Of a stretch of 64,000 nucleotides of DNA, positions 2,728 through 3,138 are shown in pieces; within the stretch, counting starts at the first letter, position 1; each line of letters starts with the position of its first letter. Location: the sequence record PQ438391.1. One strand, given 5' to 3'. The position numbers were made by a program, and so were the translations under genes. This stretch comes from Escherichia phage vB_Eco_T-01. The notes under the pieces are model-generated. The model saw nothing but the letters and a program-made list of their open reading frames with translations, made no database searches and was not told the DNA's origin.

Positions 2728-2746
2728 AATAACACTGGCGGAAAAT

Positions 2747-3094
2747 ATGAATTTTAATTATTACCCTATTCTATTAGAAAAAGACACGAAACAACCAAAT
2801 TGGCAGGGTCCTCAGTTTATTAAAGGCGTCTATCAATTAGTAGTTCCTAAAGACAAGATTTATAGCAGTTGTTTCACTGAATCCGCTTGTAGTATTTTCG
2901 GTAATAGTTCTCCGTATTGGAATTTTGATATAAAGCTTGACAGAAATATCGATATTTGGTTGAAAGCTATGGATATCGGCAATATCACGTTTGATGAGAA
3001 TAATTATCATATTATTGGTCGCTTTTCCAAGCGTGGTAAAGAATTGTATTTTACGCCTGAAATTGAAAGAAAATTTGATGCTAAACCGTATTAA
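2747..3094 (+). CDS. Hypothetical protein, 115 aa, lying between frd and td
   Basis: ORF 2747..3094; no recognisable motif; in T4 frd and td are reported to overlap directly. Confidence 0.5.
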   Translation: MNFNYYPILLEKDTKQPNWQGPQFIKGVYQLVVPKDKIYSSCFTESACSIFGNSSPYWNFDIKLDRNIDIWLKAMDIGNITFDENNYHIIGRFSKRGKELYFTPEIERKFDAKPY

Positions 3095-3138
3095 TTATTA
3101 GCTTCATAAAATGTATTATAATTTATATAAGGTACTAA

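Follow-up and report, generated by a model that had tools for sequence, protein, structure and literature searches.

The frd-td locus

We analyzed a stretch of 64,000 nucleotides (nt) from Escherichia phage vB_Eco_T-01 (sequence record PQ438391.1), referred to below as the window, and in particular the small gene that it carries between frd, encoding dihydrofolate reductase, and td, encoding thymidylate synthase. The window is a segment of a Tequatrovirus (T4-like) genome, and its positions 2100-3300 are 99.6% identical to Escherichia phage vB_EcoM_G50. A preliminary description, made from the sequence alone, had placed frd and td about 410 base pairs (bp) apart around an open reading frame (ORF) of 115 amino acids (aa), and had noted that the two genes overlap at ATGA in T4. 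Both statements are correct. The gap spans 2728..3138 (411 nt) and contains a single long ORF, which we call td.1, together with antisense ORFs of 42-57 aa. In T4 (NC_000866), the two genes share 4 nt, ATGA, and the junction reads ...GTATATAAATGAAACAATACC; the td start lies inside the frd stop, and T4 td has no separate leader. The genes of the window locus and their translation signals are:

2146..2727, + strand: frd, dihydrofolate reductase, 193 aa ending in ...VYK*, matched over its full length by Pfam DHFR_1 (E=3.2e-19)
2737..2742, + strand: Shine-Dalgarno-like GGCGGA, 4 nt 5' of the td.1 ATG, kept in RB3, T2H, bas42 and bas47
2747..3094, + strand: td.1, accessory gene from the ORF list, 115 aa, PHROG 1928
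3129..3133, + strand: Shine-Dalgarno-like AAGGT of td, 5-6 nt 5' of the td ATG
3139..3999, + strand: td, thymidylate synthase, 286 aa, matched over its full length by Pfam Thymidylat_synt (E=3e-95)

The C-terminal residues of Frd are the same in the 193-aa T4 protein. The AGGT core of the td signal is common to 5/5 aligned td.1 carriers, with T replacing the first A in bas47.

td.1 is a conserved protein-coding gene

td.1 is a genuine protein-coding gene under strong purifying selection. Comparison with the alleles of RB3, bas42 and bas47 gave 13-33 synonymous (Sd) and 1-11 non-synonymous (Nd) differences and a ratio of non-synonymous to synonymous rates (dN/dS) of 0.01-0.06, so that the ORF passes the check on coding signal that the preliminary description had proposed. 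Homologues at 27-45% identity in other genera retain 12 invariant residues, which in the window protein are Q16, W19, G27, L31, G52, N79, G91, F93, K95, G97, F102 and P104; their invariance was read from two alignments (A1 and A2), window protein included. We regard td.1 as real because synonymous differences far exceed non-synonymous ones and because the invariant residues persist in distant homologues. A chance reading frame in a non-coding spacer would be in keeping with the many spurious ORFs of AT-rich phage DNA and with the Aplg8 record, which leaves the ORF unannotated. The dN/dS values refute this; conservation of the protein down to 27% identity across genera, with its invariant residues, the confident structure model described below, and the position of td.1 as the only long ORF in the gap also speak against it. 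We give the chance-frame explanation practically no prospect of being right.

The gene is already catalogued, with its function uncharacterized, and is not new. Its product is 98.3% identical over all 115 residues to td.1 of T2H (AY262132.2, ABI48932.1), which occupies the same frd-td position with the same junction sequences and shows no difference of substance. It has the same 98.3% identity to ORFs of T2, T6, RB3, RB14 and hundreds of other records, nearly all named 'hypothetical protein'; the same ORF is named RB32ORF229c in RB14/RB51. The PHROG 1928 profile matches residues 4-111 (profile positions 2-125 of 126, E=1.1e-35), and a homologue from JD18 and a paralogue from Q7622 match this profile as well. 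The preliminary description had recognized no motif in the ORF, and searches of Pfam, NCBIfam and PADLOC agreed in giving no match to td.1, leaving only PHROG 1928, itself listed as of unknown function. We found no paper on td.1, RB32ORF229c, PHROG 1928 or the frd-td ORF, and a 2009 paper in Nucleic Acids Research that cites the T2H record leaves td.1 unmentioned. Several records carry the label 'putative dihydrofolate reductase', which we reject: DHFR_1 (PF00186) matches the neighbouring frd and not the td.1 product. The label probably stems from the overlap of td.1 with an extended frd in RB3-type alleles.

When 1.84 billion representatives were searched exhaustively with a profile, 38 clusters were returned, which define a phage-only family. 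All are single-domain proteins of 95-139 aa except a 37-aa fragment (P0034) and an 899-aa protein (P0035); we discarded the latter as a spurious match to a tandem-repeat protein. td.1 is likewise a single-domain protein within the range of ~95-140 aa encoded between or beside frd and td, and the same context was seen in 10 other loci. A separate NCBI protein of 195 aa (P0012) has its last 37 residues identical to the C-terminus of JD18-type td.1, preceded by an unrelated N-terminal part of 158 residues; two origins are conceivable, an insertion into td.1 in a Klebsiella-type phage and an artefact of gene calling.

Most relatives fill the frd-td slot

A tblastn search with the td.1 protein matched 548 phage records, 362 of them at 90% or higher aa identity and 186 below 60%. 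In all loci inspected (~8 genera), members of the family sit between frd and td or next to them. To survey the alleles, we used a 296-bp probe of the T4 junction, which matched 514 records, and read an evenly spaced sample of 60. A td.1-sized gap was present in 41 (39 spans of ~711-714 bp and 2 of 679-685 bp), a ~500-bp span in 10, and the uninterrupted 296 bp of the T4 state in 5; the other 4 were partial. Among the Tequatrovirus records of the sample the shares are ~70-73% for td.1, ~18% for a 68-aa gene and ~9% for the T4-type empty junction. The T4 frd/td overlap is a minority state, and T4 is the exception. The preliminary description had called this an unusual site for an accessory gene. 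It is not, because most relatives fill the slot, with td.1 or with alternative cassettes, and the T4 overlap makes up only ~9%. The possibility, raised with that claim, that T4 and most of its relatives carry an ORF here is half correct: T4 lacks one, and most relatives have one.

The slot is also filled beyond Tequatrovirus. Homologues of td.1 with 27-45% identity directly follow frd in Kanagawavirus (Q7622, PEi20), Jiaodavirus (JD18), Moonvirus (Moon) and Marfavirus (R3_1). Within Mosigvirus, bas47 and KMB38 carry td.1, and the RB69 junction is empty, with the same sequence as in T4. The ~500-bp allele holds the 68-aa gene (orf68, PHROG 9550) in ACG-C40, GRNsp7 and JS10. At several loci the td.1 homologue is followed by a second ORF, which is a paralogue of td.1 (hhalign probability 99%, E=3.9e-18, same PHROG). 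Marfavirus R3_1 (L008) and a metagenomic relative (L014) have the order frd, td.1, paralogue, 68-aa gene, td, and a further locus (L019) has frd, td.1, paralogue, td; td.1 of L014 and of L019 is 62% and 65% identical to window td.1, respectively. The slot thus occurs in five states: td.1; td.1 and paralogue; both of these with the 68-aa gene; the 68-aa gene; and empty (T4, RB69). On our reading, the frd-td slot is a polymorphic cassette site and the usual location of PHROG 1928 in T4-like enterobacterial phages. The td gene of the window is uninterrupted and lacks the group I intron and I-TevI, whereas td of T4 and RB3 is split and carries I-TevI. On inspection of these few loci, no association between slot allele and td intron was apparent, and all combinations occur: td.1 with the intron (RB3) or without it (window), empty with the intron (T4) or without it (RB69), and orf68 with I-TevI (ACG-C40) or without an intron (JS10).

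A duplicated stop/start junction brackets td.1

The window carries an extra gene-bearing segment relative to T4, as first described, and a repeat search found this segment to be bracketed by a direct duplication of the frd/td junction. Its two copies are:

2721..2735, + strand: left repeat copy TAAATGAAATAACAC, with the frd stop (2725-2727) and the relic ATG AAA TAA (2724-2732), which resembles a td start
3136..3150, + strand: right repeat copy TAAATGAAACAATAC, containing the td start codon (3139-3141)

The copies are identical at 13/15 positions, the first 9 exactly, and are spaced 415 bp apart. They form the sole pair with at least 13/15 identity at a 415-bp offset in the window (background 3.3e-6 per pair). 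The T4/RB69 junction, ...TATAAATGAAACAATACC, consists of the left flank, one repeat copy and the right flank, and removal of one copy with the intervening DNA yields exactly this junction. Beyond what coding imposes, 6/8 unconstrained bases match, as do 3/3 bases upstream. The td.1 segment has no terminal inverted repeats and no transposon-like ends.

The left junction differs among td.1 carriers. The window allele has the short frd end (VYK*) and then a 19-nt spacer to td.1. Compared with window positions 2719-2746, RB3 (L001:3590-3675) and bas47 (L015:1440-1524) have 3 nt more: the A-run at the frd stop is longer by two A, and one other base is added. The VYK* stop is thereby lost, frd gains 11 codons (…VYKNEITCGGKYEF*), and its end overlaps the first 11 nt of td.1. 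Among td.1 carriers, Frd accordingly has two C-terminal forms. The outgroup loci L014 and L019 lack the extra 15-18 nt of the left junction, and their frd tail, VYGEKR(EF), runs directly into td.1. The RB3-type end, VYK-NEITC-GGKYEF, looks like VYK* fused to a GEKREF*-type tail.

Since the left copy resembles a dead td start and is absent from the closest outgroups, we favour insertion of td.1 into an overlap junction, and take the relic as moderate evidence for such a recombination within the T-even clade. There, td.1 would have recombined into a pre-existing frd/td overlap and would later have been exchanged and lost repeatedly; recombination between the repeat copies would restore the T4 overlap exactly. 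The events may also have run the other way, with the td.1 allele first in the T-even clade and the T4 ATGA overlap derived by a precise 415-bp deletion between the 9-bp repeats. Such a deletion would produce the T4 junction without remainder, most Tequatrovirus records have a filled slot, filled slots also occur in at least five other genera, and both other alleles end in (A)ATGA contexts too, so that independent deletions would converge, as in T4 and RB69. It sits less well with the 15-18 extra td-start-like nt of the Tequatrovirus left junction, which L014 and L019 do not have, and with the identical empty junction on divergent frd backgrounds (T4 and RB69 frd share 64% nt identity). We consider a derived T4 junction a real possibility, with a chance somewhat below even.

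Where the genes are tightly packed, stop and start codons overlap at most junctions, mainly as ATGA. L014 has such overlaps at frd/td.1, paralogue/orf68 and orf68/td, and GRNsp7 at frd/orf68 (ATGA) and orf68/td (TAATG). Whole genes could therefore be removable at (A)ATGA microhomologies with the chain left unbroken.

Cassettes move between lineages

Two cases mark the slot as a point of recombinational exchange. Between Dhakavirus JS10 and Tequatrovirus GRNsp7, DNA identity is 97% across the orf68 cassette and drops to ~80% in the flanking frd and td. In bas47 (Mosigvirus AlbertHofmann, L015 894-2722), the frd+td.1 block is 87-88% identical to the window, whereas frd of RB69 (L012) is only 63-65% identical to the window, and bas47 td is 95% identical to RB69 td. 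bas47 is a mosaic of Tequatrovirus-like frd+td.1 and RB69-like td, and a recombination breakpoint therefore lies between td.1 and td.

The slot resembles the hyperplastic regions of T4-type phages in holding small genes of unknown function between conserved genes, where they are gained, lost, replaced and exchanged across genera. In two papers, the shuffling of hyperplastic regions is attributed to promoter-plus-stem-loop cassettes (PeSLs) (Arbiol et al. 2010, PMC2839356; Comeau et al. 2014, PMC4122927). At td.1 the bracket is instead a duplication of the stop/start junction, and searches that were not aimed at PeSLs revealed no terminator-like stem-loop.

Promoter-like elements and expression

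Two promoter-like elements had been singled out in the preliminary description, one at the frd stop and one ahead of td:

2719-2726, + strand: late-promoter-like TATAAATG, formed by the frd codons TAT AAA and the TG of the TGA stop
3100..3129, + strand: promoter-like indel segment of 30 nt, with a MotA-box-like TTAGCTTCA (3098-3106) and either TATAAT (3117-3122) or TAATTT (3119-3124)

The T4 late promoter consensus is TATAAATA at -10. TATAAATG fits this at 7/8 positions and falls short of a late promoter, and the window has 24 copies of TATAAATR where 16.3 are expected. The box is not a notable element of the insert: it is uninformative, because it is the frd stop context and is found equally at the empty T4 and RB69 junctions.

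The letters reported ahead of td, AGCTTCA (3100-3106) and TATAAT (3117-3122), are present as claimed. T4 middle promoters have a MotA box, (a/t)(a/t)(a/t)TGCTT(t/c)A, near -30 and a -10 element TAnnnT 11-13 bp downstream. TTAGCTTCA fits the MotA consensus at 8/9 positions (A for T before GCTT), with a spacer of 10 nt before TATAAT or of 12 nt before TAATTT. Matches to a relaxed pattern, GCTTYA-N10-13-TANNNT, are enriched in the window (23, where 8.8 are expected), so that a single match is not decisive. With a start ~7 nt beyond the -10 element, the td ATG would be reached after a leader of only 8-10 nt. The 30-nt segment is kept in the window, RB3, T2H and bas42. Mosigvirus bas47 and Tequatrovirus Phaginator lack it, and there td follows td.1 after 13-15 nt. 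The record of phage Lutter annotates a (predicted) promoter at the equivalent place. Judged from its sequence, the td-proximal element is plausibly a middle promoter with an unusually short leader, and evidently a dispensable one.

No terminator-like sites were found in 1800-4700, a sigma-70 scan was no richer than shuffled sequence, and Rfam gave only a sub-threshold chance match. The absence of terminators fits co-transcription of frd, td.1, td and nrdA, as would be expected from T4 biology. td.1 would then be transcribed with these genes from upstream early/middle promoters and be translated from its own ribosome-binding site. With td.1 in place, td would need its own AAGGT ribosome-binding site instead of coupling to frd, and a MotA-type promoter may lie just upstream of td.

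The td.1 product is predicted to be a small binding protein

An AlphaFold2 model built from a 12-sequence alignment is confident (mean predicted local distance difference test, pLDDT, 81.6; predicted template modelling score, pTM, 0.78), with the predicted layout beta-beta-alpha-beta / beta-alpha-beta-beta-beta. Comparison of the td.1 sequence with the PDB gave nothing meaningful (best E=0.11). A likeness to the oligonucleotide-binding (OB) fold or to single-stranded DNA-binding protein (SSB) was considered and dropped, as the best Foldseek match in the PDB reached only E 0.36 and TM 0.22, which permits no fold assignment. A fold search of BFVD returned uncharacterized T4-like phage proteins only. 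Of the profile and structure searches suggested in the preliminary description, the former thus led to PHROG 1928 and the latter to a confident model, with no characterized family or fold from either. The family is soluble and mostly mildly basic (isoelectric point mostly 7-9.4), with a negative grand average of hydropathy (GRAVY) and no conserved Cys. The invariant residues are of the types Gln, Trp, Asn, Lys, Gly, Phe, Leu and Pro, and none of the 12 invariant columns holds Asp, Glu, His or Cys. We favour a binding protein over an enzyme because there are no catalytic-type invariant residues and no match in Pfam, NCBIfam, PADLOC or the PDB. By analogy, td.1 would encode a small and soluble alpha/beta protein without enzymatic activity, which would bind a partner and be conditionally useful and dispensable.

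Records of the BASEL collection (bas42, bas47 and others) annotate td.1 as a 'putative homing endonuclease'. A free-standing homing endonuclease, or another selfish mobile gene, would fit the presence/absence polymorphism, the wealth of such genes in the region (segG, I-TevI, mobE) and the short direct duplication that flanks the segment. The protein itself does not bear this out. No GIY-YIG, HNH, LAGLIDADG or PD-(D/E)XK match was obtained even at E<=1, no nuclease catalytic domain of these or the EDxHD type is present, and the invariant columns lack the acidic residues and His. With 115 aa, td.1 reaches about half the length of known phage homing endonucleases, terminal inverted repeats are missing from the insert, and the syntenic homologues at 27-45% identity across genera suggest long residence and not recent invasion. 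The genes segG, mobE and I-TevI are optional and patchy among T-even phages (PMC2790892). td.1 resembles them as an optional gene of patchy distribution between nucleotide-metabolism genes, and differs in lacking a nuclease domain or motif, in being much smaller, and in being old and syntenic across genera. We consider the endonuclease label very unlikely to be right.

What the binding partner might be is a matter of two readings. There is about an even chance, in our estimate, that td.1 is directed at the host or its defences, like other small early/middle T4 proteins, and we favour this because td.1 is optional and exchangeable. The small T4 ORFan 55.2 inhibits E. coli topoisomerase I (PMC4396842). 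td.1 may be compared to 55.2-type proteins as a member of a small, non-essential and phage-restricted class with no enzymatic signatures; it has no sequence or fold relationship to 55.2. The host-directed role stands somewhat ahead of the other reading, in which td.1 is a partner of Frd/Td or of the deoxynucleoside triphosphate (dNTP) complex, as a subunit, chaperone or regulator made in step by translational coupling. The direct proximity of the family to frd and td in all inspected loci, the stop/start overlaps with frd, td or both in most lineages, the joint movement of frd and td.1 into Mosigvirus bas47, and purifying selection that is very strong for a supposedly optional gene all suit such a partner. 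Yet T4, RB69 and ~9% of Tequatrovirus do without a copy and 18% have the unrelated 68-aa gene instead, with frd and td otherwise similar; T4-like gene order is conserved by descent anyway, which makes position weak evidence; and no homologues occur beside thyA or folA outside these phages. We think a role as Frd/Td partner unlikely. It is similarly doubtful, if conceivable, that PHROG 1928 is an unrecognized partner of the thymidylate enzymes or a nucleotide-linked counter-defence or takeover factor, with the slot serving as a dedicated exchange site that preserves coupling.

Taken as a whole, the reading that we prefer, in which td.1 is a genuine accessory gene in a cassette slot, inserted into the frd/td junction and encoding a dispensable binding product, has a probability of about 0.75. 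Several observations weigh against it. Coding imposes part of the 9-bp exact match between the repeat copies, as Frd ends in ...YK* and Td begins MKQY..., and the composition-based p values, computed post hoc, are ~8e-3 for the 6/8 bases alone and 2.5e-4 jointly. The repeat serves precise loss equally well, so T4 is either never-filled or a revertant, and the filled slot is the more widespread state across genera. The allele shares come from database records and not from an unbiased phage sample. The host-directed binding role is argued from analogy and from the absence of catalytic signatures, and the constant place of td.1 beside frd and td over many genera, with frequent stop/start overlaps, could mean a role in thymidylate metabolism.

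The tandem paralogue, the 68-aa gene and neighbouring genes

The paralogue, which we call td.1b, is present in Kanagawavirus, Moonvirus, Marfavirus, Karamvirus, Gelderlandvirus, Winklervirus and other genera. Among its tblastn matches (many listed records), td or frd is the neighbour whenever the underlying annotation names one. td.1b shares with td.1 the PHROG 1928 assignment, the slot and the motifs QKxW, HG(I/L)Y, GN and GRFxKxGxxIxF; it differs in being only 19-29% identical and in having a ~20-residue insertion (PTIxxYKRNP...) after QKxW. No paralogues of td.1 were found elsewhere in the window. A 225-aa ORF (window 44646-45320, - strand, PHROG 5104) has two short stretches that match the td.1b profile (E=0.005), probably by chance. 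A relic of td.1b downstream of the td.1 stop is not supported either, as similarity to L014 ends at the stop codon.

The 68-aa gene (MSNKLKVKDVP..., PHROG 9550) was located at:

L011:1780-1986: GRNsp7
L010:1823-2029: ACG-C40
L013:3080-3286: JS10
L008:3148-3354: R3_1, in a three-gene module
L014:4670-4879: metagenomic relative, in a three-gene module

It is unannotated in JS10, and in ACG-C40 only an internal start (42 aa) is annotated. Copies with ~43% identity were found by tblastn in Phapecoctavirus-type phages (phAPEC8), outside the T4-like group. Neither the 68-aa protein nor the td.1 paralogue has a match in Pfam, NCBIfam or PADLOC.

Immediately upstream of frd, the window has ORFs at 1557-1892 (111 aa, PHROG 3566) and 1901-2146 (81 aa, PHROG 3183), the second of which shares 1 nt with the start of frd. 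T4 has no annotation for either; there, frd comes after frd.1 with a 71-nt gap. The 111-aa protein occurs in 477 phage records, including those of Klebsiella and Enterobacter phages and one Acinetobacter phage. Downstream of td, nrdA.2 (DUF5496, 4025-4288) and nrdA.1 (DUF4326, 4242-4568) share 47 nt, read in different frames, as they do in T4 and RB3.

Significance

Seen only against T4, a gene that is in fact ordinary and widely conserved passes for an odd insertion. At the frd-td junction, a compact cassette slot exists in at least five allelic states, and its exchange between genera can be demonstrated. td.1 and its paralogue form a constrained, phage-limited family with a confident predicted structure and no known fold relative. 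The duplicated stop/start junction offers a concrete route by which the classic T4 frd/td ATGA overlap could be made or unmade.

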